20,000 bases of DNA from the IMG/VR virus record IMGVR_UViG_3300020045_010788; one strand, 5' to 3'. This stretch comes from an uncultured virus (IMG/VR IMGVR_UViG_3300020045_010788) (taxonomy: Duplodnaviria > Heunggongvirae > Uroviricota > Caudoviricetes). Below are positions 1 to 19,576 of this stretch, one piece after another (within the stretch, counting starts at the first letter, position 1; the number at the start of each line of letters is the position of its first letter). Made by a program: the position numbers and the translations under genes. Below the pieces are notes generated by a model, which saw only the letters and a list, made by a program, of their open reading frames with translations, was not told the DNA's origin and searched no databases.

Positions 1-235
1 AAATAGAATAATATAAATTAGTATCAGTGTCTAATGCAACTTCTACGTTTTTGAATAATTTAGTATATACATCAAGACTATTGGGCATCTTAAGCGCAAG
101 ATCAGTTATCATCTGATTATATAGGCGACCAGTATTCAATGAAATAACCTCTGGATGAAATCTGTTTTTATCTTCCATTGAATAACGTTCGGTTAATCGT
201 ATGCCAATAAGTTCTATAAGTTGTTTCTTTTTCAT
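1..235 (-). CDS. Partial CDS running off the window; probable virion ring/tail-adaptor-like protein (MKKKQLIELIGIRLTERYS...)
   Basis: Translated by hand, open from ATG at 235 to the window edge. The ATG overlaps the TGA of the upstream gene. Function inferred from context. Confidence 0.6.
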   Translation of the reverse strand, partial: MKKKQLIELIGIRLTERYSMEDKNRFHPEVISLNTGRLYNQMITDLALKMPNSLDVYTKLFKNVEVALDTDTNLYYSI

Positions 236-2757
236 CTTACCGGCAATTTAAACTGTTGAGCATATTGCAGTATTGAATTATCCTTTAAATTAAGTCCTAT
301 CGCTTCAATCATTCGACCAGCAATCCTTATCTTATCCTCATCCCTCCATTCCATTTCGACCGTTTCGCTTTCAGTTACGCTTGTTATAACGTTATCATCT
401 GAGTTATCTTGGTTAAAATCTACATAATTACCTAAAGACATATTGCCATTAACATAAGTAGAAGTTAATGTTTGCAATGTTGATACAGAACTAAAATCTA
501 AATAACTACTACTGCTTAATACCACTGGAGTTGAGAATGATCCTATAATATTTCCCGATAATCCACTATTATTAGTATAAACAACAATCCCATTCGTTAA
601 TACAATATATGCAACACGAAGATCAGGATAATTAATATTAGCATGAATATATCCGAATTGAACACATCCACATAACACATCGTTCAAAGTAGATAATATC
701 CCTATCCAACTACGATTAATAGATCTTAATAAAATAAAGTTCCCCGTTCCGCCTGTTTGCTTATAAATTCCCACCCCCGTAACACATGCATATATATTAC
801 CACTAGAATCGGCGGATAAGCCACTCCAAGCACGACTGGTTTGGCTTAAAGCCATAAAATTGCCCGTCCCGCCTGTTTGCTTATAAATATCACCACCTGA
901 AACACATGCGTAAATATCTCCATTTGGAGCAGAACATAGTCCATTCCAATATCTAGCTGTTTGGCTTAAAGCTATAAAATTACCGGTACCGCCTGTTTGC
1001 TTATAAATATCACCGTTTAAGACACATGCATAAATGTCGCCATTCGGGGCAGAACATAAGCCATTCCAAGCACGACTGGTTTGGCTTAAAGCCATAAAAT
1101 TGCCCGTCCCGCCTGTTTGCTTATAAATATCACCGTTTAAGACACATGCATAAATGTCGCCATTCGGGGCAGAACATAGTCCCCTCCAATTGCGACTCGT
1201 TTGAGACAATGGAGCGAAACTACCAATACCACCAGCCTGCCTATAAATATCTCCTCCAAATACACAGCTATAAATATCTGAATTAATTGGAGATTGACAT
1301 AATCCACACCAAGAAAGACCGTTTTCGTATAATGAATATTCACTATTATAATGACTGTATAAATTAATCCCTACACTATTTATATCATAATAAATATCCC
1401 CTAAATTAGAATTAGTAGAAGCTATCCCACTTAACTCAATCGCACTTATCTGATTATAAGCATCTCCTTCTTTTTTCACATTAATAAGCGCCGAAGTAGA
1501 ATACCCACTACTATTATTCTGAGGAATTGTAACCGTTGTTCCAAAAAGAAAATTACTAAATGAAAAATAACATATTAAATCGGCATCCTTATAAACCGAT
1601 ATGATTAAAGCCTTTGTTGCTAAAGAATATTCATATTCAATTGAAATATTATTAGACCCATACATTCCAGTAATAAATATGTTCGATAAATAATCATCTG
1701 AACTTGGAGAAATGCTAAGTATATTTCCCGTTAATACGGCGTTACCGGTTAATCCAATCATCGAAATAGTTGATCCGACGTACCCAGTTAATGATCCAGT
1801 AGAGACTAGGGTCGTTTTATTATAATTAGAATATAGTTTTAAAAACGACTTATTAAGAGCTATGTTATAATAAATTGAATAATACAACCGAGTATAATTA
1901 TTATTTATAAGGGTTACGCCATCTAAAAACGAAGTCCCGTCCTCAGTTATGTCTATAGTTGATATAGCTAACGTAGCCGATCCGCTAATCCCAGAATTCG
2001 CATATTCATTTATGGTTACACTCCCGCCAACAACCGTAGTTGTAGCATACGCCACCTTATTAATAAATCCGGTATCCTTATAAATATTAAATTCATATAA
2101 TAGCGTACTAATATTTAATGTTATCTTCCAATATAAGCTAAAGTAATCAGAATTGTCTTCTGTAATACCGGTTAAAACAAGATTGGATATTTGAGAGTAA
2201 ATATCACCTTTAATTATTATCGCAGAGGTGGCTCCAGCTTCTTTATAAATTTGGTTTAAATTTTCATCAATGTAATAATCAATGAATGGTTTGGTGGGGT
2301 AACGCAAATAGTTAAATTTAACGTATGTTGATCTTAATGGTTCAAATTGGATTTTACCTCCTCTTATCAAACAAATAGGATATTGGCTTGTAGGCATAAC
2401 AATAGAACTGCCAATTCTATCAGCATATTCCCCATCCGTAACTCTTGAAACTGGCCTATGATAAGTATTTGACCCAATGGTTTGAGGATATATGCAATTA
2501 CTCCAATAATAATAATTCGCAGGTAGATCGGATATTCCATTTGAATTTATAGCCATGTCAGGAGACAATGCAACTTTCATTCTCTCTATGACGTTTGTTA
2601 CTATTTGAGTACGCTCATACTGAGACCTCTCATCATCATAGAATTGTTGTTGGACTATTGGGGCGAGTTTATTAAAATCAGCAGCCGTAAAGCTATCTCC
2701 ATACTGCTCTTTATTGCATACAAACCAGATAAATTCTAGTAAATCCCAATTTGTCAT
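232..2757 (-). CDS. Virion ring/head-tail adaptor-like protein with a large internal insertion (beta-rich repeats plus 40-aa propeller repeats)
   Basis: N-terminal NKEQYG..FN..QQQF, LPANY, YLRYPTKP and C-terminal EW...IGLNLKD..I.QYAQ resemble Bacteroidota phage ring proteins. Likely start is ATG 2757, downstream of the promoter box at 2793-2800. Confidence 0.65.
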   Translation of the reverse strand: MTNWDLLEFIWFVCNKEQYGDSFTAADFNKLAPIVQQQFYDDERSQYERTQIVTNVIERMKVALSPDMAINSNGISDLPANYYYWSNCIYPQTIGSNTYHRPVSRVTDGEYADRIGSSIVMPTSQYPICLIRGGKIQFEPLRSTYVKFNYLRYPTKPFIDYYIDENLNQIYKEAGATSAIIIKGDIYSQISNLVLTGITEDNSDYFSLYWKITLNISTLLYEFNIYKDTGFINKVAYATTTVVGGSVTINEYANSGISGSATLAISTIDITEDGTSFLDGVTLINNNYTRLYYSIYYNIALNKSFLKLYSNYNKTTLVSTGSLTGYVGSTISMIGLTGNAVLTGNILSISPSSDDYLSNIFITGMYGSNNISIEYEYSLATKALIISVYKDADLICYFSFSNFLFGTTVTIPQNNSSGYSTSALINVKKEGDAYNQISAIELSGIASTNSNLGDIYYDINSVGINLYSHYNSEYSLYENGLSWCGLCQSPINSDIYSCVFGGDIYRQAGGIGSFAPLSQTSRNWRGLCSAPNGDIYACVLNGDIYKQTGGTGNFMALSQTSRAWNGLCSAPNGDIYACVLNGDIYKQTGGTGNFIALSQTARYWNGLCSAPNGDIYACVSGGDIYKQTGGTGNFMALSQTSRAWSGLSADSSGNIYACVTGVGIYKQTGGTGNFILLRSINRSWIGILSTLNDVLCGCVQFGYIHANINYPDLRVAYIVLTNGIVVYTNNSGLSGNIIGSFSTPVVLSSSSYLDFSSVSTLQTLTSTYVNGNMSLGNYVDFNQDNSDDNVITSVTESETVEMEWRDEDKIRIAGRMIEAIGLNLKDNSILQYAQQFKLPVR
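640..1311 (-). repeat. In-frame 120-bp (40-aa) tandem repeat, five full units and one partial (WxGLCSAPNGDIYACVxxGDIYKQTGGTGNFxALSQTxR)
   Basis: ACACA motif recurs at 782, 902, 1022, 1142, 1262; Trp codons at 706, 826, 946, 1066, 1186, 1309. Confidence 0.95.
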
Positions 2758-2792
2758 ATTTGCGAGTGTGAGTGGGCGTTGAAAATTCACAC

Positions 2793-2800
2793 CAAATATA
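2793..2800 (-). promoter_or_regulatory. Bacteroidota-type -7 promoter box TATATTTG
   Basis: Matches TAnnTTTG, ~36 nt upstream of ATG 2757. Confidence 0.6.
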
Positions 2801-2855
2801 AACAAATTATTTTATATATAATTTATTTGTTATCTCAAGAATCTATCCCTTAGAA

Positions 2856-3080: not shown

Positions 3081-3653
3081 TTATGTATGATGTTTATTAT
3101 TTTCATTTAAAGTGTATTCATTTAAATGACACTCAGAACACAATGAAACAAGTTCAAATAAATACTCATGATCTAAATGAGCATAAGTCAAATGATGAAC
3201 TTCTGTAGCCGCCTTATGGCATATAACACAAATATAATCATCTCTTTTTAATATTATTGATCTTAATGCCTTCCATTCAGGAGCCTTAATGTAATTGTCA
3301 TATTTTGCCCTAAATGATATATGAAATTTATCCTTTATGGATTTTATGAAATCATAAACCTGGCTGTCGGATTGTTCTATATATTTATGATATTCATCCA
3401 AGCTCCTTACAGGTATTTTATTCAAATCATATTCTGACTGCTTAAGCGGCTTATTATTTAATTCCTTGCATTTTTTACAATATTGTCTCAATTGCTTCGA
3501 CCCGTTACTTATAGTAAATAATACTAAATGATAATCATGCTCGCATTCTATTTCATCAACGTCATACCTGCTGCATAAATCACACCATTTAATTTTTCTA
3601 TTACGAAACAACCGATCCGATAATAGACCACCACATTTACAATACTCACTCAT
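3081..3653 (-). CDS. HNH endonuclease with N-terminal Zn-binding motifs
   Basis: W..LR..IL.RD.Y.CxxC...ATEVHHLTY...LVSLCxxCH; additional Cys pairs near the N-terminus. Confidence 0.85.
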   Translation of the reverse strand: MSEYCKCGGLLSDRLFRNRKIKWCDLCSRYDVDEIECEHDYHLVLFTISNGSKQLRQYCKKCKELNNKPLKQSEYDLNKIPVRSLDEYHKYIEQSDSQVYDFIKSIKDKFHISFRAKYDNYIKAPEWKALRSIILKRDDYICVICHKAATEVHHLTYAHLDHEYLFELVSLCSECHLNEYTLNENNKHHT

Positions 3654-5367
3654 ACCATCGCTCTATTGGTTCATTGTCTCTTATCTTTTCAGCCAAAACA
3701 GGCAATCCGGTATCATCAATATAAAAACTATAATTATCAAAGTCTATACCTCGCGAATAATCGCAGCTTACGACCGAGTGGCTTTGCGACCCCTTTTCCT
3801 TTGATACAGATATAACAGCTTCAGCTTTTTTCATAATATAACTACCCAAATGGCCTGTAGCAAAATTATCGTTTTTATTCTGGTGTATAACTGTACTTAT
3901 ATGACAATTATATTGCTTTGTCCATCTAAGAATCAACCCAACTACTCGCGTAGCTTCATCTTCATCGTTTATTGCATTTGCCAAATCAGCAACTCCGTCA
4001 ATTGCAACAAATCCAACCTCATTAAATACAGACAATGCATATTCTATAATGTCACATCTTTCAATTGGAGAATGCTCTCGCAAATTAAATCCTAAAAAAT
4101 GTTCTGGTTTTTGAGAGGCAAGCCTTTCTATTCGTTTCATTACATTAGCAGAGTCGTAAAGGCCTTGTTCTGTATCAAAATATAATATACATCTCTTATT
4201 TTCAGGTAATTGAGCATAAAATTTATTGTAAAGATTGCCATTTTTAACTAAGCATCCTGACAACATAGAAAGATTAAATGTTTTACGAGATTTCGCTTTT
4301 CCAATTATAGCGCTAAAATTGCCTAATGTTAATAGCCTCTTTCTAATAGTAGAAGTCCCGTTTGAATCTGAAATATAAAGAATAACTGGAGGTCGTTCAA
4401 TTTCAATGTCGGTATCAATCATAGACCTTCTTAATATTTCCTTTTTCTCATCAATAGTTTTTTCTGTTTGGCTCGTTTTCGGTTCGATTTTATGAGGCTT
4501 TAACTCTAATTTGTCGGATAAATATTTTGCACATGCCTTAAAGTCTCCATTATATTCCAATAAAGCCATAACTTGAAAAGGCGTATATCCTGAATTCTCA
4601 TCAAAGGGAAAGGCGTTTGCCGAGAAAACATAAAACACATTTGGGGCGACCTTTCCTAAAGTAGCCGAAATACCTTTAACCTTACCTGGCCTAGTCCATT
4701 CACCATGCTTCAATTCCTTCCATCCGTGTGACGAAAGGATATTTTTCATATCCGCTATTGCATCAGAGGTTTTATTGTAAATATCACCAGGCTTATCCGT
4801 TTGCTCATATTCATTAGGAATGATCCTTGTCCATGTATTAAAGCTTTTTGCTATTTCAAGTAAATAAATTCGTTCCTCTTTTGTTATTGTCGGAATGTTG
4901 AATATATCGTTTTTAATCAATAAATATCCGGGTGATGGGTATGCAATAAAATAACCTCCATCTCCTCTAGTTTCAAAAATAGCATCAGGTATCCATTTTC
5001 CTTGCTCATTTTTCTTTGGCACGCTTGCCAGTTTCTGATTGCCTTCAATAAAATCACACTTCCAAAGAATATGATAACCTCCGTTCTGCGTTTGCTCAAT
5101 AGGAAATTTATATTTGTCATATAACTCTTTTATCTTTTCAATAAATTCAGTCAATCTTTGCTTAGCCATTCCATCGTGAGAATCCAAATCTAAGCATTCC
5201 AATCCTTTGTTTAAAATACCGCATTTAATACCAATTGCCTTTGCGTTAACAAAATCATTAATACCAAAATGCTTATTCCACGTACTTTTAACAAATGGCG
5301 TTTTATCTAAATTACACGGTATTATCTCATACCCTGAATCGATATATTTTTTAATTATGTCTATCAT
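3646..5367 (-). CDS. Bifunctional primase-polymerase fused to an AAA/RecA-like helicase
   Basis: N-terminal CLDLD, TQNGGYH, ETRGDGGYFIAYPS (Prim-Pol); C-terminal Walker A GKAKSRKT, YFDTEQ, IDGVAD, VIHQNK, GHLGS. Confidence 0.9.
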   Translation of the reverse strand: MIDIIKKYIDSGYEIIPCNLDKTPFVKSTWNKHFGINDFVNAKAIGIKCGILNKGLECLDLDSHDGMAKQRLTEFIEKIKELYDKYKFPIEQTQNGGYHILWKCDFIEGNQKLASVPKKNEQGKWIPDAIFETRGDGGYFIAYPSPGYLLIKNDIFNIPTITKEERIYLLEIAKSFNTWTRIIPNEYEQTDKPGDIYNKTSDAIADMKNILSSHGWKELKHGEWTRPGKVKGISATLGKVAPNVFYVFSANAFPFDENSGYTPFQVMALLEYNGDFKACAKYLSDKLELKPHKIEPKTSQTEKTIDEKKEILRRSMIDTDIEIERPPVILYISDSNGTSTIRKRLLTLGNFSAIIGKAKSRKTFNLSMLSGCLVKNGNLYNKFYAQLPENKRCILYFDTEQGLYDSANVMKRIERLASQKPEHFLGFNLREHSPIERCDIIEYALSVFNEVGFVAIDGVADLANAINDEDEATRVVGLILRWTKQYNCHISTVIHQNKNDNFATGHLGSYIMKKAEAVISVSKEKGSQSHSVVSCDYSRGIDFDNYSFYIDDTGLPVLAEKIRDNEPIERWYE

Positions 5368-6864: not shown

Positions 6865-7035
6865 ATTAATTTGAATGAAATTTACTTAAAAAATGCCTAT
6901 AGTCAGACCTATTAAAGAATCTCTGATTTACCTGGGATTGTTCTTCAATCCTCGGACTTTGATTATGTATTTCCGTGTAATGCTGGGCTTGCAAAATATG
7001 TAATGCCTTTTTCACTTAAAAATATATTCATAGCG

Positions 7036-7067
7036 CAAATATATGTTATGTATCTGATATATTACAA
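7036..7067 (-). promoter_or_regulatory. Leftward promoter (TTG ... TATATTTG)
   Basis: CAAATATA at 7036-7043 and CAA at 7065-7067, 21-nt spacer; sits at the strand-switch point. Confidence 0.6.
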
Positions 7068-7086
7068 TCTAAATGGATAATTTTTT

Positions 7087-7165
7087 GATGATAAATATCA
7101 TCAATATTAGATGATATAAATCACTTATAATAATTTGTAAGCTTATTTTATATGTAATTACTTTG
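7087..7165 (+). promoter_or_regulatory. Two palindromic operators plus a rightward promoter in front of the cassette array
   Basis: GATGATAAATATCATC 7087-7102, GATGATATAAATCACT 7110-7125, TTG ending 7137, TTACTTTG ending 7165; same spacing as 13459-13537. Confidence 0.7.
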
Positions 7166-7202
7166 TGTTTATATGAATAAATACAATATTTAAATACAAA
7201 AC

Positions 7203-7475
7203 ATGGATAATCATAACATTGTCAACGAAGAAAAAGGAAATGACGTTAACCACGTGTTAGCACCTGTTAATGTTATGCAGTTAATCTACGACTTTAATAT
7301 GGCAATAATCTTTTCAGATTTGATACCAGAAAAAACGTGTGGATATTTTGCAGACATTATGAATAAAGTGCTTACTAAACATAACTTATTAGCCGAGTAT
7401 CAAAATTACGTTAAAAGATTCGCAGAGTTGCCGCCGTCTTTCGAATGGCAGCTAACGTTGGGGTATGAAATGTAG
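7203..7475 (+). CDS. Cassette 1 hypothetical protein
   Basis: ORF spans the half-site CACGTGTTAGC (GTT 7256) and ends inside site 1. Confidence 0.6.
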   Translation: MDNHNIVNEEKGNDVNHVLAPVNVMQLIYDFNMAIIFSDLIPEKTCGYFADIMNKVLTKHNLLAEYQNYVKRFAELPPSFEWQLTLGYEM

Positions 7476-7573
7476 CGGTTTACGGGCTGCTTTCTTATCC
7501 ACCGAACAGAAACTAAAAGCGAGGCAGTATGATTGCACAACCACTGCACCCGCTATATTTTATACCCGTTGTT
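7454..7573. repeat. attC-like hairpin site 1
   Basis: AACG..GGGTATGAAATGTAGCGG / CCGCTATATTTTATACCC..TGTT. Confidence 0.85.
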
Positions 7574-7614
7574 GTGCGTATGTACTTTATTATTAACAAT
7601 TAAAATATATCAAA

Positions 7615-7914
7615 ATGATTACACAAGGAAATTGGATTGCTCGAATTGATGAAATGGGAATAGATATTATTGAAGAAAAAACGGGATTCGGCGTAGTATG
7701 GCTTGGCAACGAAGAAGAATTAAAAGCGTGTGAGTATCCATTAGAAACAGCAAAAGCTAATGCTCAATTAATATCTGCCGCCCCTGACCTACTAAATGCA
7801 ATACAGTATTATTTAGATGTTCTTGAAGAAGTAAGAGGGAAAGAATTTAGTAAAAACTCTGACCATGTGCTTAAAAAAATGTTATATGCAGTAGCTAAAG
7901 CACGAGGCATTTAG
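7615..7914 (+). CDS. Cassette 2 phage protein (ANAxLIxAAPxLL motif family)
   Basis: TQGNW N-terminus and ANAQLISAAPDLL; paralog of cassette 4. Confidence 0.8.
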   Translation: MITQGNWIARIDEMGIDIIEEKTGFGVVWLGNEEELKACEYPLETAKANAQLISAAPDLLNAIQYYLDVLEEVRGKEFSKNSDHVLKKMLYAVAKARGI

Positions 7915-7924
7915 TATTACGTAC

Positions 7925-8048
7925 AACGGTGGACGTATGGTGGCGTACCGGATTAAATAACGAAAAACTTATCAATTTATGACAAAGCAAATAGATACCT
8001 CCGAACTTTCGCATACCACTGAAACCGGTATGCACTATACGGCGTGTT
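7925..8048. repeat. attC-like hairpin site 2
   Basis: AACG..CGTATGGTGGCGTACCGG / CCGGTATGCACTATACG..TGTT. Confidence 0.85.
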
Positions 8049-8626
8049 ATAACCAGCCTTTTATTCTTGTTGGGTTTGAAGAAAGCCAGGCAATTACAAT
8101 AGAATTAAGGAAACGTGGATATAATGCTTTTTCATGTGACTTACAAGATTGTTCAGGCGGGCATCCAGAATGGCATTTAAAAATGGATATATTCTTAGCT
8201 ATTAATATGCGAAAATGGGGCATGATAATATTGCACCCGCCTTGCACTTTTACTGCACTTTGTGGGAACCGATGGTACTGGAATAGCTTTGAAAGAGTTG
8301 ACGGCGTTGAATTATGCCAAAAAGCTTGGAATGAAGCTTGCAAAGTATGTGACCATGTGGCTTTAGAACAGCCAAAAACTATAATGCAAAGATATATAGG
8401 CAAAAGAAGCCAAACTATACACCCATGGCAATTTGGACACGGTGAAACAAAAGAAACTTGGCTTTGGCTTAAAAACTTACCTGAATTAAAACCTACCAAC
8501 ATTGTTGAAGGTAGAGAAAATTTAATTTGGAAAATGCCACCATCAAAAAACCGTCAAAAATTACGTTCAAAAACTTACCCTGGAATCGCTGCCGCAATCG
8601 CTGAACAATGGACGGCTGTCTTTTAA
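7979..8626 (+). CDS. Cassette 3 phage DNA cytosine methyltransferase-like protein
   Basis: ILVGFEESQ, AFSCDL, HPPCT, LEQP, PWQFGH...K.T.LWLKNLP, RSKTYPGIA.AIA.QW; start codon lies inside site 2. Confidence 0.8.
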   Translation: MTKQIDTSELSHTTETGMHYTACYNQPFILVGFEESQAITIELRKRGYNAFSCDLQDCSGGHPEWHLKMDIFLAINMRKWGMIILHPPCTFTALCGNRWYWNSFERVDGVELCQKAWNEACKVCDHVALEQPKTIMQRYIGKRSQTIHPWQFGHGETKETWLWLKNLPELKPTNIVEGRENLIWKMPPSKNRQKLRSKTYPGIAAAIAEQWTAVF

Positions 8627-8636
8627 GGTTGGTTAT

Positions 8637-8765
8637 AACGATTCCGCAGCTATGAGCGGTTGCGGACTTCGGAGCTGCGTTTTTATCGCACGACAAAAAC
8701 CAGCGTAATGCGAGACGAAATGTTGAATGCCAGTACTACACCCGCAATCGCTTATAGGTGCTGTT
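8637..8765. repeat. attC-like hairpin site 3
   Basis: AACG..CTATGAGCGGTTGCGG / CCGCAATCGCTTATAG..TGTT. Confidence 0.85.
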
Positions 8766-8804
8766 ATAAACAGGATTTATTTATTCACAATTAATTATAA
8801 AACA

Positions 8805-9092
8805 ATGTCAAACGAAGCGCATACACAAGGTAATTGGAAATATAGACCCGATGTAGTAGGTAATAGTTTCTATATAGAAACTGTTGACCAATCTCACGAT
8901 AGGACATTTATTGGCGAAATAGGCGGAGGACTTCAATCAAAATCAGAAATTGAAGCAAATGCAAAACTTGTATCTACTGCTCCTGAACTTTTAGAAGCGT
9001 GTCAAAGAGCATTAGAAGTTTTGGAATCTGAACAAATATTTGGACAAGCAAGATTATTATTAGCAGTTGCCATTAAGAAGGCTGTTTCTTAG
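8805..9092 (+). CDS. Cassette 4 phage protein (ANAxLVxxAPELL motif family)
   Basis: HTQGNW...EANAKLVSTAPELLEA; likely ATG 8805 after an A/T-rich leader. Confidence 0.8.
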   Translation: MSNEAHTQGNWKYRPDVVGNSFYIETVDQSHDRTFIGEIGGGLQSKSEIEANAKLVSTAPELLEACQRALEVLESEQIFGQARLLLAVAIKKAVS

Positions 9093-9101
9093 CTTGTTTA
9101 T

Positions 9102-9222
9102 AACGTTGAGCATAAGATTAGTGCGGGATTTCAAAGCTGCGAACCTATCCCACGCTAAAAACTTGATAAAAGGAAGCAGTAACAATATGGCGCTTAACCC
9201 CGCATTAATTTTATGCTGTGTT
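9102..9222. repeat. attC-like hairpin site 4
   Basis: AACG..GCATAAGATTAGTGCGGG / CCCGCATTAATTTTATGC..TGTT. Confidence 0.85.
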
Positions 9223-9245
9223 ATAGCCAGTTAATTATTAATCAA

Positions 9246-9422
9246 ATGGACGAAATAATAAATGATGGTGAAAAGTATTATTTAAGAGCAAGAATGGATA
9301 ATACATTAGTTTATGAGAGTGCTTCGGGTGGAGATGCAATTGTAATTGTTAATGCCGAAATAATATGTACAATAAGGGCTATTTCAACCGGAAATGTCGG
9401 AATGGTTGACGTTATGGTTTAA
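9246..9422 (+). CDS. Cassette 5 small hypothetical protein
   Basis: Fills the cassette; ATG 9246 (alternative 9213 inside the site). Confidence 0.65.
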   Translation: MDEIINDGEKYYLRARMDNTLVYESASGGDAIVIVNAEIICTIRAISTGNVGMVDVMV

Positions 9423-9430
9423 TTGGCTAT

Positions 9431-9552
9431 AACGTTGAGCGTATGTGCTGTGTGGGAATACGAATAACGTATTTATCCACATACACCAACGCTAAATACG
9501 AGAAATGAACTTTAATAACTTACTGAAACCCACATAGCATATACGCTGTGTT
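9431..9552. repeat. attC-like hairpin site 5
   Basis: AACG..AGCGTATGTGCTGTGTGGG / CCCACATAGCATATACGCT..TGTT. Confidence 0.85.
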
Positions 9553-9567
9553 ATATACAGGCTTTTT

Positions 9568-10203
9568 ATGAAGATTTTAAATTTATACGCAGGAATTGGA
9601 GGCAATAGGCTACTTTGGGGCGATGACCACGAAATAACAGCTATTGAGTATAATTCAGAAATAGCAAAAGAATATCAAAGGTTATTTCCAAATGATACAG
9701 TAATTGTAACCGATGCCCATAAATATTTAATTGACCATGTTTTAGACGGATGGGATTTTATTTGGGCTTCGCCTCCATGCCCAAGCCATAGCCGAATAAA
9801 TACCGATGGAAACCATGCACCACGTTACCCGGAGATGACATTATACCAAGAAATAATAATGCTAAGTAATAACTGGTATAAAGGCAAATGGGTAATTGAA
9901 AATGTAATACCTTATTACGAACCAATCATAAGACCTAATGTAGAAATAGATAGACATTATTTCTGGTGTAATTTTAGGGTAAATAAAATTGAAGTTAAAG
10001 CCGAAAAAAGCATTAAAGACCAAAGCGGTACAAATGGAAGATTTGGTTTTAACCTTAAAGGAATTGACATTAAAGCCAATAAAAGACAAGTATTAAGAAA
10101 CTTGGTTAACCCTGAAATTGGCTTACACTTTTTAAATCGAGCTTTTGAAATTGCAGAAAGTAACAAATCAAAGCAGAAAACTTTATTCGATGCAGTTTTT
10201 TAA
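9568..10203 (+). CDS. Cassette 6 C5 DNA cytosine methyltransferase
   Basis: Motif I LNLYAGIGG, motif IV WASPPC, motif VI IENV, C-terminal LRNLVNPEIG. Confidence 0.88.
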   Translation: MKILNLYAGIGGNRLLWGDDHEITAIEYNSEIAKEYQRLFPNDTVIVTDAHKYLIDHVLDGWDFIWASPPCPSHSRINTDGNHAPRYPEMTLYQEIIMLSNNWYKGKWVIENVIPYYEPIIRPNVEIDRHYFWCNFRVNKIEVKAEKSIKDQSGTNGRFGFNLKGIDIKANKRQVLRNLVNPEIGLHFLNRAFEIAESNKSKQKTLFDAVF

Positions 10204-10213
10204 GCTTGTATAT

Positions 10214-10335
10214 AACGGTTTCCGCTATGAGTAGTGGCGGTTTTGGAACTACTCACTATCAAAATACAACAAATGAATATAGAAAGCACAACACAACAAT
10301 TACCACTTAACCCGCCATTACTTATAGCGAGTGTT
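10214..10335. repeat. attC-like hairpin site 6
   Basis: AACG..CGCTATGAGTAGTGGCGG / CCGCCATTACTTATAGCG..TGTT. Confidence 0.85.
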
Positions 10336-10665
10336 AGTGGCTGTACTTCTTGGGATGAATGGTTAGAAAAAACCGAAGCATCATTAAAAGATATTGGATA
10401 CAGAAAATACAAGCAGAATTTAAAGCACGAAGATTTTGCTTACTGGAAAGAGTTTGAAGGTTATCAGGTTGGTTTATTTTTCTATGATTTTAGAAAACAT
10501 CAAAATCAATTTAACTTACCCGAAAGAATTGGTGTTCAATTTGAATGTATGTTTACTGATATTGACGAAAGAATTGATTTGTCAGTTAGTAAGGATATTT
10601 CGTTAGAACAATTTGAAAATATGGCTAAAACTTTCATTGATGCTATGTTTCAGTATTGCCACTAA
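10273..10665 (+). CDS. Cassette 7 hypothetical protein
   Basis: Starts inside site 6; its stop TAA is part of the TAAC of site 7. Confidence 0.75.
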   Translation: MNIESTTQQLPLNPPLLIASVSGCTSWDEWLEKTEASLKDIGYRKYKQNLKHEDFAYWKEFEGYQVGLFFYDFRKHQNQFNLPERIGVQFECMFTDIDERIDLSVSKDISLEQFENMAKTFIDAMFQYCH

Positions 10666-10786
10666 CGGTGGCGGTATGAAAGCGTGCCGATTTGCGAGCT
10701 GTAAACTATCAAATTTTGACAAATTATGAACGGAGCTACACACTTTAATAAACCACTACACTCGGCATGTTTTATGACCGCGTGTT
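10664..10786. repeat. attC-like hairpin site 7
   Basis: AACG..GCGGTATGAAAGCGTGCCGA / TCGGCATGTTTTATGACCGC..TGTT. Confidence 0.85.
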
Positions 10787-10840
10787 AGCGGTATGGCATT
10801 TGTTTAATTCATTATAAATTAACATTTTAAATTTAAAAAC

Positions 10841-11302
10841 ATGAACATTTTAAAACAAATTAAATCAATTTGCGATGGTATTGAGTATTCAAGAGATATA
10901 CCTGAAGAAGCTAAAAAACTTGCTAAAGAAAATGGCATAGTTGTAATTGTTGGCGGTAGCGATGACTTAATGTACGCATACGGAGCTGAAAGTTATTTAA
11001 CTGATTATTGCGAACACTCCGAAGGTTGGGATGGTTGTGATCTTACAAAACACGCAAGCGACAAACAATTATTGAAAGAAGCCAAACAATTAGGATTAAA
11101 GATTTTTTGGTGCGGAACAATTGAAAAAACAGGCGAGCAAATTGAAGATTACAAAACAGCCGAAAGCGGAGCATTTAGCTATAAAGTAGCTGACAATATT
11201 GAACATCTAAATTTTAAAGTAATGGAAGATGAAGATGTTTATTGCACAGGTATAATTATCAAATTGCCTGACGGATTTATCAGTTCAAAAGATGACGAGT
11301 AG
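10841..11302 (+). CDS. Cassette 8 hypothetical phage protein
   Basis: 153-aa ORF with AKENGIVVIVGGSDDLM and EDEDVYCTGII motifs. Confidence 0.8.
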   Translation: MNILKQIKSICDGIEYSRDIPEEAKKLAKENGIVVIVGGSDDLMYAYGAESYLTDYCEHSEGWDGCDLTKHASDKQLLKEAKQLGLKIFWCGTIEKTGEQIEDYKTAESGAFSYKVADNIEHLNFKVMEDEDVYCTGIIIKLPDGFISSKDDE

Positions 11303-11336
11303 TCTCAATGCGGTAGGCTGTTTTATGCTTACCGCT

Positions 11337-11424
11337 AACGGTGGTTGTATGCGTTCGGTTTTGCTTGCATACGACTATCAATTTACACGGAATTACCCAG
11401 CAAAACTGACGTATACAACGTGTT
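11337..11424. repeat. attC-like hairpin site 8 (short, 88 bp)
   Basis: AACG..GTTGTATGCGTTCGGTTTTGCT / AGCAAAACTGACGTATACAAC..TGTT. Confidence 0.85.
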
Positions 11425-11468
11425 ATCGCTTCGGTTTTTATTACTAATCTTTTAAACAATAAATAATT

Positions 11469-11954
11469 ATGGCAACCAAAATTTTAAGTTACGAAGAAAT
11501 AATTGAACAAGCCCGCTCATCTTGGGGTGGAAAAATTGGAGATGAACGAGCCGAATCAGTAAAAAAAATACTCGATACAAGGCTTGAAAATTACCATAAA
11601 ATTACCGGCATTTCCAAAGATGAAATTCTAATTGCTTTTGAAAAGGCAAGAAATGTAAATACCGTAAACTTTTACCAAGAAAGTAATTTTCCACTTTTGG
11701 AAGATGTTCAAGTATTTGAAACACTCGAAGATTACAAAAAAGCATTTCCATCCGGTAAATATATTTGCCCTTCATGTGGAAAAGAAAGCACAGACCCTTA
11801 CGAGTGTTCACAAGAAAAATGTGACTGGAAAGTTTATGGATTGTTTGGTGATTTAGGGAAAGGAATAAAAGTAATTATCAAAGATAAATTTCTTGAACAT
11901 CCTGTTCCTATGAGAATTTTTAAACCTGTCGAACTGGTTACGGTCGCTTCCTAA
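11469..11954 (+). CDS. Cassette 9 hypothetical protein with Zn-ribbon-like Cys cluster
   Basis: NFYQESNFP, CPSCG...PYEC....CDWKVYGLF. Confidence 0.8.
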   Translation: MATKILSYEEIIEQARSSWGGKIGDERAESVKKILDTRLENYHKITGISKDEILIAFEKARNVNTVNFYQESNFPLLEDVQVFETLEDYKKAFPSGKYICPSCGKESTDPYECSQEKCDWKVYGLFGDLGKGIKVIIKDKFLEHPVPMRIFKPVELVTVAS

Positions 11955-11964
11955 ACTGATCGAT

Positions 11965-12085
11965 AACGATGGCAATAAAAAACGAAAGGGATTTAAAACC
12001 GCTTCTTTATCCACCGTTACAGACCTTGCAAACAGCTACATCGCTTGAATTACAGATAATACCCTTTTGTTTTTTATTGCGTGTT
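11965..12085. repeat. attC-like hairpin site 9
   Basis: AACG..GCAATAAAAAACGAAAGGG / CCCTTTTGTTTTTTATTGC..TGTT. Confidence 0.85.
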
Positions 12086-12123
12086 AGCAAACGTATTTTA
12101 TTAATAACTAAATAATTATCAAA

Positions 12124-12351
12124 ATGGAAGAAAAATTTAACGAGATACTTCAAAAGCATGAAATTAGGTTAATTGACTTTGAAAGAGAAAAAAACGAAAT
12201 GGCTCAAAAATGCCTATTTTTAAAAGAACACGGATTTAACAAAGAACTTGAATGGCTAAACCACGAAAGACAATCAAAAATAGATTTATTTTTAAACTAT
12301 CGTGATGCAATAAAAGAATTAAGAGAGCTTCTAAATGCGTGGAACTCTTAA
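12124..12351 (+). CDS. Cassette 10 small helical hypothetical protein
   Basis: ORF fills the cassette. Confidence 0.75.
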   Translation: MEEKFNEILQKHEIRLIDFEREKNEMAQKCLFLKEHGFNKELEWLNHERQSKIDLFLNYRDAIKELRELLNAWNS

Positions 12352-12361
12352 TATGTTTGCT

Positions 12362-12482
12362 AACGTTTTGCATAAGACCAGTAGCGGAATAGGAAGCAGT
12401 ACACTATCAACCGTTACACACTCAATAAAATGTACTGCACTAACATACACCACTGAAACCGCTATTGGTTTTATGCGGTGTT
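12362..12482. repeat. attC-like hairpin site 10
   Basis: AACG..GCATAAGACCAGTAGCGG / CCGCTATTGGTTTTATGC..TGTT. Confidence 0.85.
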
Positions 12483-12497
12483 AGCAAATCGTTTATT

Positions 12498-12779
12498 ATG
12501 ACAACAATTGATGAAGAGCAATTAAAATTAGAAATTGCACACATATTTGAAAGTGGAGCAAACGAAATCAGAATTTTAGAAATGGTTAAGAGCTTTGTTA
12601 ATAGCCGAAATATTATTAATCAAAACAAGCCTCAATTACCATTAGAACGCATAAAAACTATGGCACTTGATTGGGCTAAAGATAGAAGTGTTGGCAATGC
12701 TGAACAGGATGATGAATGCAGATACGACTACGAATGTGGTATGCTATCTGCTCGGAGCATTCTTTTAAATGTTTGCTAA
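12498..12779 (+). CDS. Cassette 11 hypothetical protein
   Basis: ATG 12498; its stop TAA is part of the TAAC of site 11. Confidence 0.75.
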   Translation: MTTIDEEQLKLEIAHIFESGANEIRILEMVKSFVNSRNIINQNKPQLPLERIKTMALDWAKDRSVGNAEQDDECRYDYECGMLSARSILLNVC

Positions 12780-12899
12780 CGTTAAATGTTTGTGCAGTTG
12801 GGGATAAAAACCACTGCACTATCAAAAATAGTAGAAACATAATAAATAGATACACAGATGAACACACCACAAACACCCCAATTGCATAAACATAGTGTT
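12778..12899. repeat. attC-like hairpin site 11
   Basis: AACG..ATGTTTGTGCAGTTGGGG / CCCCAATTGCATAAACAT..TGTT. Confidence 0.85.
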
Positions 12900-13181
12900 A
12901 GCCGTTCGGCATTTTTAAAGTTAAAATTTCCATCACTGCCTTATTGTGAGTTTGGTTTAAAATCAGGTAGTTCAACTAAATGGAACGAATCTTGGCACTA
13001 TAAAAATGCAAGTTCAGGCGTTCAGGTAAATGCATTATGGTATGATGATGAAACGGTATCAATAGGTGTTTATGACCCTCGAATTAAAAACAAATTTGAA
13101 GTTAATAAAACCGTTTTTGACAAATCAGGAAACTTCAATCAAGAAATTTTAGAAATGTATTGCCGTCGTTTTTTATGCTGA
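12858..13181 (+). CDS. Cassette 12 hypothetical protein
   Basis: Starts in the loop of site 11; no usable Met after the GTT. Confidence 0.75.
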   Translation: MNTPQTPQLHKHSVSRSAFLKLKFPSLPYCEFGLKSGSSTKWNESWHYKNASSGVQVNALWYDDETVSIGVYDPRIKNKFEVNKTVFDKSGNFNQEILEMYCRRFLC

Positions 13182-13210
13182 CGGCTAACTCGTTTATATA
13201 CGCAATAGCC
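13175..13210. other. Terminal half-site (attI candidate): ATGCTGACGGCTAAC-TCGTTTATATACGC
   Basis: Has the cassette-12 complementary flank and AAC, but reads AACT rather than AACG and has no matching right arm. Confidence 0.5.
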
Positions 13211-13229
13211 ACAATAGTTAACTATCAGT

Positions 13230-13451
13230 ATGATAATAAATAAACCTATTGAAATCATATATGCTATTTCAGAAATAGCAGGATATGGTTTTGGAAAAGA
13301 CAAATTGCTTTATAATTTAAAAACGAAGCACATTAAGAAGCAGTGTTACAATAATGGTTCCATTGGATATTGGTTAAATGGCAAATTTTATTCATTGAAA
13401 AAATTAAGACCAATGTTAACCAAATATATTGAACCAAAAAAGGTCTTTTAA
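13230..13451 (+). CDS. Small basic hypothetical protein next to the array end
   Basis: 73 aa, Lys and aromatic rich (YNNGSIGYWLNGKFYSLKKLR). Confidence 0.75.
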   Translation: MIINKPIEIIYAISEIAGYGFGKDKLLYNLKTKHIKKQCYNNGSIGYWLNGKFYSLKKLRPMLTKYIEPKKVF

Positions 13452-18928: not shown

Positions 18929-19008
18929 ATGTGTATGGCGGGTGGGCTTTTATTTTTTTCTTCGCACACGCAGGAACTAAAATACGAGCTATTCACCCGC
19001 TTGTAGTT

Positions 19009-19130
19009 AACGGTCGCAGGTTTGACCAGTAAGGGATTACGGGCTTCGCTCCTGTCGAAATATCCCAAAGCTGATGCGAGATATAACGTTGCAATTAATC
19101 ACGAAACCTTTATTGGTTATAGCTTGTGTT
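19009..19130. repeat. attC-like hairpin site 12, separate from the main array
   Basis: AACG..CAGGTTTGACCAGTAAGGG / CCTTTATTGGTTATAGCTTG-TGTT; 122 bp; ATA-N6-GTT. Confidence 0.75.
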
Positions 19131-19271
19131 AGCAAATCGGCTTTTATTAATCTAAAAATAAGAATATTATGATGAAAACTTATGTGTTAATGGTTTCGGA
19201 AAGGTTTCCGCAAACCCACAAACGTGTTAGGCGGTCGTTATTTATTTTAAACACTTAAAAACTAATATTAT

Positions 19272-19576
19272 ATGAAGATTTACATTTCAGGAAAAATTTC
19301 GGGACTGCCGATTAAAAACGTAATTGAAAAGTTCAAATGGCACGCTGCATTTTTAGAAATGAAAGGTCATACACCTATTAATCCAATAGAAGTAAGCCCC
19401 TTCAATGATAAAAAAACTGACGTGATTATATGGTTGATGATATTTCGGCCTTATTGGAGTGTGAAGCGATATATATGGTGAAGGACTGGGGTCAATCTAA
19501 GGGGGCTAGGCTTGAATACGCTATTGCCAAAGAATTAGGACTATATATTCTTTTTGATGGAGAATTTAATAATTAG
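19272..19576 (+). pseudogene. Frameshifted DUF4406-family (nucleoside deoxyribosyltransferase-like) gene
   Basis: MKIYISGKISGL...NP continues in another frame as RDYMVDDISALLECEAIYMVKDWGQSKGARLEYAIAKELGL; the break is near the A7 run at ~19410, with a TGA where Trp is expected. Confidence 0.8.

Follow-up and report, generated by a model that had tools for sequence, protein, structure and literature searches.

The window analysed here, the whole stretch of 20,000 nucleotides from an uncultured virus (IMG/VR IMGVR_UViG_3300020045_010788), probably holds a mobile gene-cassette array that carries no recombinase gene and forms part of an integron-like system of the host family. The original prediction regarded the complementary ends of each cassette as the footprint of circular intermediates. 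The core of this claim gained indirect support from whole-unit differences between phages with cuts at AAC, from an array end common to different last cassettes, and from the link of the same sites to a recombinase on bacterial chromosomes.

Array layout and site structure

The sites were located with R1, a covariance model of the site made in this analysis, whose modelled strand carries the G.T wobbles. The features are as follows.

7203..13189, + strand, whole array: 12 small co-oriented genes with 11 hairpin sites between them, closing with a half-site; R1 matches
7450..7577, + strand, site J0: …AGCTAAC, hairpin, GTTGTGC…; R1 94.1 bits
7921..8052, + strand, site J1; R1 104.8 bits
8633..8769, + strand, site J2; R1 78.7 bits
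9098..9226, + strand, site J3; R1 105.4 bits
9427..9556, + strand, site J4; R1 115.6 bits
10210..10339, + strand, site J5; R1 105.1 bits
10660..10790, + strand, site J6; R1 105.9 bits
11333..11428, + strand, site J7, short form with an AAC-to-GTT span of 82 nt; R1 57.4 bits
11961..12089, + strand, site J8; R1 102.8 bits
12358..12486, + strand, site J9; R1 115.7 bits
12774..12903, + strand, site J10; R1 106.7 bits
8046..8639, + strand, body of cassette 3, taken as the example: DNA methyltransferase, phrog_757
9550-10216, body of the C5 methyltransferase cassette
7571-7927, 8763-9104, 9220-9433 and 10333-10666, remaining cassette bodies of the first half
10784-11339, 11422-11967, 12083-12364, 12480-12780 and 12897-13189, remaining cassette bodies of the second half
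13183..13230, + strand, array end: final …GGCTAAC, followed by backbone without a hairpin
19005..19134, + strand, extra site of the same family, outside 7571-13189; R1 65.4 bits

R1 counted 12 sites in the window without an integrase, and no tyrosine recombinase was found among the 32 ORFs scanned. The array end at 13189 is proposed to be an attI-like insertion point. In cassettes 3, 7 and 12 the ORF start falls within the upstream hairpin: site J1 contains the likely start codon of the cassette-3 methyltransferase (ATG 8030), site J5 the sole early in-frame ATG of cassette 7 (10273), and site J10 the ATG of cassette 12 (12858).

All 11 junctions between cassettes resemble integron attC sites (…AAC hairpin GTT…), with an AAC-to-GTT span of 82-123 nt and covarying stems. 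Among the 11 window sites, 17 of the 26 pairs showed compensatory changes. For 61 distinct sites outside the training set, 92.1% of cells were paired as against 66.7% in shuffles, a value matched by 0/500 shuffles, and changes on both sides were found at 21/26 pairs in an alignment fitted to model R1. The irregularities of the stem consist of a 3x1 spacer and of 1x1 positions that are G.T or A.C depending on the strand, with no bulged bases inside the stem. In the modelled strand the surplus spacer bases belong to the AAC arm, whereas bottom strands of classical attC have their extrahelical bases on the opposite arm, and the mapping of strands to classical attC is therefore not clean.

Complementary ends within each cassette

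The seven start/end pairs on which the prediction was built were all located in the sequence, and the four further pairs were likewise present. Cassette 3, for example, starts with GTTATAACCAGCC… and ends with …GGTTGGTTATAAC. The expected enrichment of own pairs was borne out, since each of the 11 own pairs ranked first in both its row and its column (ties allowed), and permuting the end labels 200,000 times never gave the summed own-pair score of the 11 window cassettes. Over positions 5-16, the start and the reverse complement of the own end had a mean identity of 8.2/12, compared with 4.5 for the two flanks of one hairpin and 3.5 for all non-own pairs. The weak complementarity claimed for the two flanks of a single hairpin also proved correct, as their 33-44% at positions 5-10 equals that of random pairs.

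A position-wise tally of 36 unique cassettes, to which the window contributed 11 and nine cultured Flavobacterium phages 25, resolved the make-up of the helix as GTTA, six cassette-specific pairs, a non-Watson-Crick position 11 and three further pairs. Own Watson-Crick pairing in these cassettes was 78-94% at positions 5-10, 0% at position 11 and 75-89% at positions 12-14, and fell to background from position 15 onward, showing that the helix stops at 14. Position 11 was never Watson-Crick, with T on the end side and usually G on the start side. The predicted outer stem of about 15 bp thus stood as a long own-end stem, its length being corrected to 14 bp including one obligatory wobble.

That the full stem forms only when a cassette is circularised was supported in part. 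A circle does juxtapose the two halves, and in predicted folding of the 11 window units the circular form gained 6.5 kcal/mol on average while the outer pairs rose from 5.4 to 14.2; the top strand beat the bottom strand by 3.1 kcal/mol. Long-range pairing of the ends in single-stranded array DNA would give the same helix, however, so that the word "only" is not proven.

Complementarity between the two ends of one unit is formally the same as terminal inverted repeats, which would suit a transposon-like arrangement in which each gene, bounded by 14-bp repeats, is moved by a transposase. This explanation is extremely improbable. The ends vary across cassettes at positions 5-10 and 12-14 yet stay complementary within each cassette, which suggests that what is recognised is a paired structure, not a sequence; no transposase was found among the genes of the array, and no target-site duplications were seen in the unit differences examined between cultured phages.

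Unit-wise variation and the chromosomal recombinase

The nine cultured Flavobacterium phages, isolated on two related Flavobacterium strains according to their host fields, are 97-100% identical over their shared parts, and their arrays are permutations of 24 discrete units. Near-identical phages differ by whole units with cuts at AAC. In 12/18 informative pairs similarity extended to 3 nt or less from the C of AAC, and for pairs with a common upstream body it ended 4-16 nt past this C in 11/13. In eight of the nine phages, four different last cassettes are followed by one backbone sequence directly 3' of AAC. Four bodies (G7, G8, G23 and G4) have differing upstream neighbours, and in each case the hairpin travels with the downstream body. 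Window cassette 3 also occurs in record L135 with the same hairpin and another upstream flank, the similarity starting from 7922, which is the AAC. The earlier assignment of each hairpin to its downstream gene agrees with the recent events in the cultured phages and with L135.

The linkage of hairpin to body is not absolute. Body G16 is found with two hairpins and an altered R box (filifjonk9-1, mumin9-1), and the left arm after it is common to two contexts. The window methyltransferase body follows three different hairpins in L135-L137, with the arms of site J9 found again ahead of the methyltransferase in L136. The hemulen/stinky deletion, a single event, shows about 10 nt of microhomology across the two hairpin arms and could be microhomology-mediated. 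Neither a circle nor a circle junction nor an empty site of the window phage was observed; the one read run located (5% of sampled words) contained relatives only, and its joints were cross-matches between hairpins.

Exchange by homology offers another account of such modularity. Shuffling of T4-type phages by PeSL, with mini-circles, was reportedly described by Arbiol et al. 2010, and here it would mean that repeated promoter and terminator stem-loops between early genes recombine homologously into mini-circles. A stem-loop does stand between every gene of a phage early region, and some hairpins recur in one genome, with h4 present twice in hemulen6-1 and the h4 and h13 variants being mosaic. 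These features notwithstanding, PeSL-type shuffling is improbable. The hairpins of the nine phages fall into 28 sequence clusters, hairpins adjacent in an array have only the TAAC/GTTA core in common, the breakpoints fall within 4-6 nt of shared sequence, and homologous exchange needs no cassette-specific pairing of ends. Moreover, TAnnTTTG, the -7 promoter motif of Bacteroidota, is in no window hairpin, its three occurrences in 7000-13400 all lying elsewhere.

The arrays could alternatively be fossils, assembled elsewhere, for instance in a recombinase-bearing ancestor, and now immobile, with the end pairing merely inherited. In keeping with this, no recombinase was found in the window or in the complete cultured relatives, and no close relative of the window phage was available that could display recent change: PF00589 was absent from 6/6 complete cultured phage genomes with sites and from the IMG/VR relative L001, as well as from six IMG/VR records with R1 arrays (G002-G005, G013 and G023), all of which are estimated to be incomplete. 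Nevertheless, a fossil array is unlikely, because whole-unit differences between phages at 97-100% identity indicate recent exchange without a phage-borne enzyme, and because no decay of the helix was seen in any of the 11 window cassettes.

A candidate for the enzyme comes from bacterial chromosomes. Of 151 genomes sampled from a single bacterial family, 123 carried the site family (R1, E<=1e-4). In GTDB this is the family that includes Flagellimonas sp. SN16; we take it to be Flavobacteriaceae, and it is likely the host family of the window phage. Three of the three chromosomal arrays picked, chosen by hand from the listed matches and not as random draws, end near a PF00589 recombinase that is co-oriented with the cassette genes and sits at the array side predicted from the phages. 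The recombinases are Xer-like, scoring 199 and 186.5 with TIGR02249 against a cut-off of 265; aligned with VchIntIA (2a3v) in two stretches, they have 17 residues where VchIntIA has 58, and judged by their sequences they are without the IntI-specific insertion.

The 44 cassettes of these three arrays have the same helix as the phages, with own Watson-Crick pairing of 84-95% at positions 4-9 and 66-86% at positions 12-14, and with 0% at position 11, where T.G was found in 39/44. Relative to site polarity, the genes of the phage cassettes lie on the opposite strand to those of the chromosomal cassettes. A phage unit has its hairpin ahead of the gene, and AAC marks the boundary on the sense strand; on the chromosomes each gene is followed by its site, as in the classical layout, and in 40/44 bodies the strand with the wobbles is the antisense strand of the gene. 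This opposite orientation argues against selection acting on mRNA only, with a long-range stem enclosing each gene and the hairpins serving processing or stability, as do RNase III sites of phage early transcripts and rRNA processing stalks. In the phages such a role would fit the position of the hairpins within a co-transcribed row of genes and the fact that the conserved non-Watson-Crick pairs are all G.U on the sense strand. The chromosomal mRNA of those 40 bodies would hold A.C mismatches, but both the helix and the fixed T.G are just as well conserved there; nor would mRNA selection predict the invariant AAC/GTT, unit-wise indels at AAC and a common array end. As the sole explanation it is very unlikely, while an extra RNA role in the phages may exist alongside the DNA role.

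For the preferred reading, a mobile cassette array, the following mechanism can be proposed. Each junction is a folded, attC-like site that comprises an R box (…TAAC / GTTA…) and a covarying stem of about 19 bp, together with an asymmetric spacer and a loop, and the two ends of a cassette are the halves of its specific 14-bp outer helix, the R box included. Within the array, the gene keeps its own halves apart, leaving the hairpin flanked by halves of two cassettes that pair over only 4-5 bp. Excision of a unit (hairpin plus gene) by exchange at AAC would bring its own halves to the flanks of the hairpin and let the full site fold, and this fully folded circular form would presumably be a good insertion substrate. 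The G.T-wobble strand, on which R1 was modelled, may be the one that is recombined, corresponding to the classical attC "bottom" strand. For the phage arrays, the enzyme would most likely be a tyrosine recombinase of the Xer-like host type that acts in trans. Circles as intermediates, the choice of strand and the action of this enzyme on phage arrays are what we infer from the pattern as a whole.

A wider proposal that unites these elements seems possible rather than probable. Flavobacteriia phages may keep a mirror-image cassette pool for a host-wide integron-like system with an Xer-type recombinase, in which a helix present only in the circle, next to the hairpin, serves as a licence, G.T wobbles set the strand, and the host enzyme is borrowed to swap anti-restriction genes, e.g. 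methyltransferases. If so, the 14-bp helix with T.G at position 11 would make circles far better substrates than array sites, and fixed wobbles in place of extrahelical bases would mark the strand for the enzyme.

Comparison with known systems

In the current view, integrons rely on a special domain of the integrase to read the extrahelical bases of attC. The system analysed here would follow the same cassette logic using a plain Xer-like enzyme and sites of another design, and it is found in the majority of genomes sampled from a large family of marine bacteria as well as in their virulent phages. A cassette-specific helix of this length provides a direct, testable handle both on how a recombinase distinguishes free from integrated cassettes and on how strand choice can be encoded without extrahelical bases. 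The system also offers a mechanism for the fast turnover of phage methyltransferase genes, which in cultured Flavobacterium phages accompanies differences in plating efficiency among hosts, according to the relevant part of PMC7077304.

Classical attC sites are imperfect hairpins of 57-141 bp between RYYYAAC and GTTRRRY, as given in the passage of PMC3053210 that defines them, and 11/11 window sites fit this description. Shared with classical integrons, such as class 1 integrons and the Vibrio chromosomal integron, are also arrays of promoterless small genes and a cassette site that is complete only in the circle; the definition in PMC2674596, in the section concerned, takes the attC of the circular form as the cassette's own, so the principle of pairing on circularisation is already known. 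The chromosomal relatives further share the gene-then-site order and the recombinase at one array end. By contrast, no IntI with its specific catalytic-domain insertion was found among the 32 window ORFs scanned, and the recombinase of the chromosomal relatives is without that insertion; its gene is co-oriented with the cassettes instead of divergent. Where classical sites have extrahelical bases, these have fixed wobbles, G.T on one strand and A.C on its complement. Pairing extends over 14 bp with an obligatory wobble at position 11 as opposed to the 7 bp described for classical sites. The phage hairpin precedes the gene, whereas in a classical cassette attC comes after the gene and the sense strand is crossed over at G|TT, and in place of an attI beside an integrase the window has only the hairpin-less array end at 13189.

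Integrase-less clusters of attC-type sites with DNA methyltransferases have been described in virulent phages of marine bacteria as CALIN (Qi et al. 2023, PMC9892861), a class defined by at least two attC sites called with the attC model of IntegronFinder and no intI in the vicinity. In one of them, Polaribacter phage P12002L, two sites with divergent directions were predicted and IntI1 recombined one site with attI1, as stated in parts of that paper; R1 detected seven sites there, some beside methyltransferase genes. In the parts covered, PMC9892861 gives no account of long arrays, cassette-specific end pairing, fixed wobbles, unit-wise variation among related phages or any connection with chromosomal arrays of the host.

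In gut Bacteroidales, rAID-1 comprises an XerD-family recombinase followed by co-oriented short genes, between which lie conserved motifs described as "reminiscent of integrons" (Ross et al., bioRxiv 10.1101/471110; PMC12247911). Compared by description, the three chromosomal arrays have the same layout, while the window is without the recombinase; taxon and cargo are different, and site structure, crossover and circular form are absent from the description of rAID-1 in the parts concerned.

The PeSL of T4-type phages reportedly also combine stem-loops between early genes with modular shuffling and proposed mini-circles, but their units are near-identical, made of promoter and terminator, and exchanged by homology. 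The sites described here vary in sequence while keeping their structure; they are bounded by AAC/GTT and occur in recombinase-linked chromosomal arrays too. In the literature searched, no paper was found on the extended helix or the fixed wobbles, nor on the reversed orientation of the phage genes or the spread in this family. Compared with these systems, it is the length of the helix, the fixed wobble and the setting that are new here.

Helix between the two ends of one cassette

All of the start/end pairs quoted in the original prediction were located in the window sequence, and the observation that the two ends of a cassette are complementary to each other was confirmed and sharpened. Here the start denotes the bases after a hairpin (GTTA...) and the end those before the next hairpin (...TAAC), with positions counted from GTTA. 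Over positions 5-16, identity between the start and the reverse complement of the own end averaged 8.2/12 in the 11 window cassettes, compared with 4.5 for the flanks of one hairpin, which belong to two neighbouring cassettes, and 3.5 for all non-own pairs. Own pairs ranked first in row and column, ties allowed, in 11/11 cassettes, and the diagonal enrichment of own over other pairs was clear, as 0/200,000 label permutations reached the observed sum.

Pooling the 11 window cassettes with the 25 unique cassettes of nine cultured Flavobacterium phages allowed the helix to be followed position by position.

Watson-Crick pairing along the outer helix (n=36)
Positions 1-4: GTTA, invariant
Positions 5-10: own ends 78-94%; neighbour's flank 33-44%; random pairs 33-39%
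Position 11: own ends 0/36; end always T, start G in 29/36
Positions 12-14: own ends 75-89%; neighbour's flank 14-42%
Positions 15 onward: own ends at background

This profile defines a 14-bp helix in which position 11 is an obligatory T.G wobble, and the seven cassettes without G at this position carry a one-base bulge there. The predicted outer stem of ~15 bp therefore held as a long own-end helix and was corrected in its exact length. The claim that the flanks of one hairpin pair poorly also stood, since at positions 5-10 they paired in 33-44% versus 33-39% for random pairs. Stop codons lie 11-13 nt ahead of the C of AAC in 7/11 window cassettes, indicating that the helix begins immediately past the gene. 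The same helix was found in 44 cassettes of bacterial chromosomal arrays, with T.G at position 11 in 39/44.

Hairpin sites and their polarity

The 20-kb window is phage DNA, and its DNA similarity, confined to single genes with 65-75% identity, points to Flavobacteriia phages. Its main features are:

3646-5367, minus strand: PrimPol/helicase
Minus strand: HNH endonuclease; replication initiator; large repeat-rich structural-type protein
Plus strand: exonuclease; endonuclease VII-like gene
7203-13189, plus strand: 12 small genes with 11 elements between them

Each of the 11 elements starts after ...AAC and stops before GTT..., with 82-123 nt between, and two of the array genes, in cassettes 3 and 6, encode DNA methyltransferases. 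An 857-aa ORF (232-2805, minus strand) contains near-identical internal repeats of ~120 nt (roughly 780-1200) and gave weak matches only, to a virion structural protein family. The DUF4406/nucleoside 2-deoxyribosyltransferase-like gene at 19272-19576 consists of two overlapping frames (19272-19481 and 19430-19576), likely owing to a frameshift or sequencing error.

When folded, the 11 junctions have a loop of ~70 nt on a stem of ~19 bp, which an asymmetric spacer separates from an R box of 6-7 bp (xxxTAAC/GTTAxxx). RNAalifold gave 26 pairs, 17 of which showed compensatory changes. In 10-11/11 sites, three of the pairs read G.U on the plus strand and become A.C mismatches on the minus strand. 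A covariance model, R1, was trained on these 11 sites. In 61 distinct sites outside the training set, 92.1% of cells were paired versus 66.7% after shuffling (a value reached by 0/500 shuffles), in an alignment fitted to R1 and thus favoured by the model. Both-side changes occurred in 21/26 pairs of these sites, and two G.U pairs were fixed in 60/61.

R1 also detected a twelfth window site at 19005-19134 (65.4 bits). It is followed, within 19005-19250, by GTTAGCAAATCGG... and another GTTAGG start ~100 nt on, so that this region may represent a second, very short array ahead of the DUF4406 gene. The window hairpin loops share YTATCMA and ACCACT...AAMCC at fixed places (e.g., 7495-7500, 9150-9156, and 10259-10265), and no Bacteroidota -7 promoter motif was found in them. 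Rfam gave just two weak and unrelated matches in the window, none to an attC-type family, and a loose motif scan of IMG/VR gave only single matches, probably by chance. An exact 47-mer taken from the first bases of the window had no match in IMG/VR. The closest relative by PrimPol (66% identity), IMG/VR contig L001, carries two sites, but these are at a contig end and in a different location. A homologue of cassette 8 in Riemerella phage CRP19 lies in a tightly packed region with 0 sites.

Gene orientation relative to R1 bears on whether the end pairing serves solely as structure in the mRNA. In phage cassettes the gene lies on the R1 strand in 40/45 bodies and opposite to it in 0/45, whereas in chromosomal cassettes it lies opposite R1 in 40/44, the layout of classical integrons (gene, then site; crossover G|TT on the sense strand). 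Considering these opposite orientations, the wobble-bearing strand tracks the polarity of the site and not transcription, which argues against an mRNA-only role and supports the G.T strand as the folding and recombining strand.

Exchange of units and the proposed circular form

The R1 site family also occurs in cultured Flavobacterium phages from a trio of related genera (Lillamyvirus, Muminvirus, and Hattifnattvirus), which are 97-100% identical over the shared parts of the array region. Their nine arrays are permutations of 24 discrete units, each composed of a hairpin, a gene body, and AAC: stinky9-1 equals hemulen6-1 less units 5-6, unit 14 is found in three phages, and unit 16 occupies two different places. 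Four bodies (G7, G8, G23, and G4) keep their upstream hairpin behind different neighbours. Among 18 informative pairs, similarity extended to at most 3 nt from the C of AAC in 12, was lost in the loop in 4 because of an allelic hairpin, and was lost at GTT in 2 (body G16); among pairs sharing the upstream body, it was lost 4-16 nt past this C in 11/13, the pairs of both sets being non-independent events. Moreover, the arrays of 8/9 phages close with four different cassettes whose AAC leads straight into one and the same backbone sequence, no hairpin intervening; in the ninth, mumin9-1, the last R1 match examined was not the final one of the array. The window array ends in the same way, with AAC and then backbone at 13189. 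IMG/VR contig L135 also contains cassette 3 of the window, behind the same hairpin but with a different upstream flank, similarity beginning at AAC (7922), and the body of this cassette stands behind other hairpins in contigs L136 and L137.

Together, the unit-wise breakpoints, the array ends, and the cassette 3 data indicate recent exchange at AAC. On a longer time scale, new combinations of hairpin and body also arise at the GTT side. In cassettes 3, 7, and 12 the gene starts inside the upstream hairpin, which fits a hairpin-first unit. In filifjonk9-1 (L131, 4070-4934) and mumin9-1 (L132), body G16 has the R box GTTATAG instead of GTTAACC and its own end is no longer matched; the hairpin after it has the left arm of another hairpin and a loop containing the start of the next gene. 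In L135 (~10595-10620), ...TTATAAC of the methyltransferase cassette is followed by the same 11 bases that close window cassette 4, then by backbone. The cut thus coincides with the fixed T of position -11, either by chance or because a secondary cut point may lie there.

In the proposed mechanism, two array sites would exchange at AAC and thereby free a hairpin with its gene as a circle, in which the cassette's own 14-bp halves would flank the hairpin. When the 11 window units were folded in circular form, the mean gain was 6.5 kcal/mol and the outer pairs rose from 5.4 to 14.2; in array sites, only 4-5 bp of the R box pair. The circle would accordingly be the preferred substrate, inserting at the hairpin-less array end. 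A freshwater sequencing run contained 5% of the sampled window words, and its contigs matching the window are relatives. Four joints in this run connect corresponding parts of different hairpins, with low likeness and short sides, and are neutral as to circles or deletions. The circular-intermediate interpretation is partly supported, by own-end pairing, unit exchange at AAC, and the folding gain of the circular form; the circles themselves, the choice of strand, and the acting enzyme are inferences.

Recombinases, chromosomal arrays, and known systems

A profile search with PF00589 found no recombinase in the 6 complete cultured phage genomes with sites, in the fragment L001, or in six IMG/VR records with R1 arrays, these six all being estimated incomplete. 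Likewise, in L171, a MAG-binned phage contig of 52 kb that carries three sites, none was present among the 11 ORFs of at least 150 aa in the 20 kb examined. The integrase of IMG/VR contig L148 lies directly upstream of a methyltransferase relative, yet no R1 site is present; it was rejected as the site enzyme and is probably an ordinary temperate-phage integrase.

In bacteria, of 151 genomes sampled from the GTDB family that contains Flagellimonas sp. SN16 (Flavobacteriaceae), 123 had R1 matches at E<=1e-4, often clustered on megabase contigs. In three chromosomal arrays hand-picked among these matches, a tyrosine recombinase read in the same direction as the cassette genes lies near the end of each (3/3), on the side matching the hairpin-less end in phages:

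G174: 378-aa recombinase, separated from the last own-end AAC by 126 nt
G172: recombinase ~3 kb away, with an IS inserted between
G069: recombinase ~1 kb away; 202-aa frame only

The insertion in G172 is an rve-family IS transposase (L198, 18346-19182) between the array and the recombinase. In G174, the 126 nt from the last AAC to the recombinase stop codon (L203, 6688-6812) contain a perfect small palindrome and then a T run, a candidate attI-like region or terminator. The recombinases scored 232 and 211 bits with NF040815 (cut-off 220) and 199 and 186.5 bits with TIGR02249 (cut-off 265), and in alignment with VchIntIA 17 of their residues stand opposite 58 of the integron integrase. By these sequence criteria the enzyme is classed as Xer-like.

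Among known systems, rAID-1 of Bacteroidales combines a recombinase of the XerD family with intergenic repeats like those of integrons (10.1101/471110). In virulent phages, Qi et al. (2023, PMC9892861) reported clusters of attC sites that lack an integrase; two of these sites are in Polaribacter phage P12002L, in which R1 finds seven. Methyltransferase content has been linked to plating efficiency by Nilsson et al. (2020, PMC7077304), in passages that mention neither hairpins nor cassettes. In classical integrons, the attC of a cassette is by definition the one seen in circular form (PMC2674596), so that the circular-form principle of the original prediction is already established there, for 7 bp.
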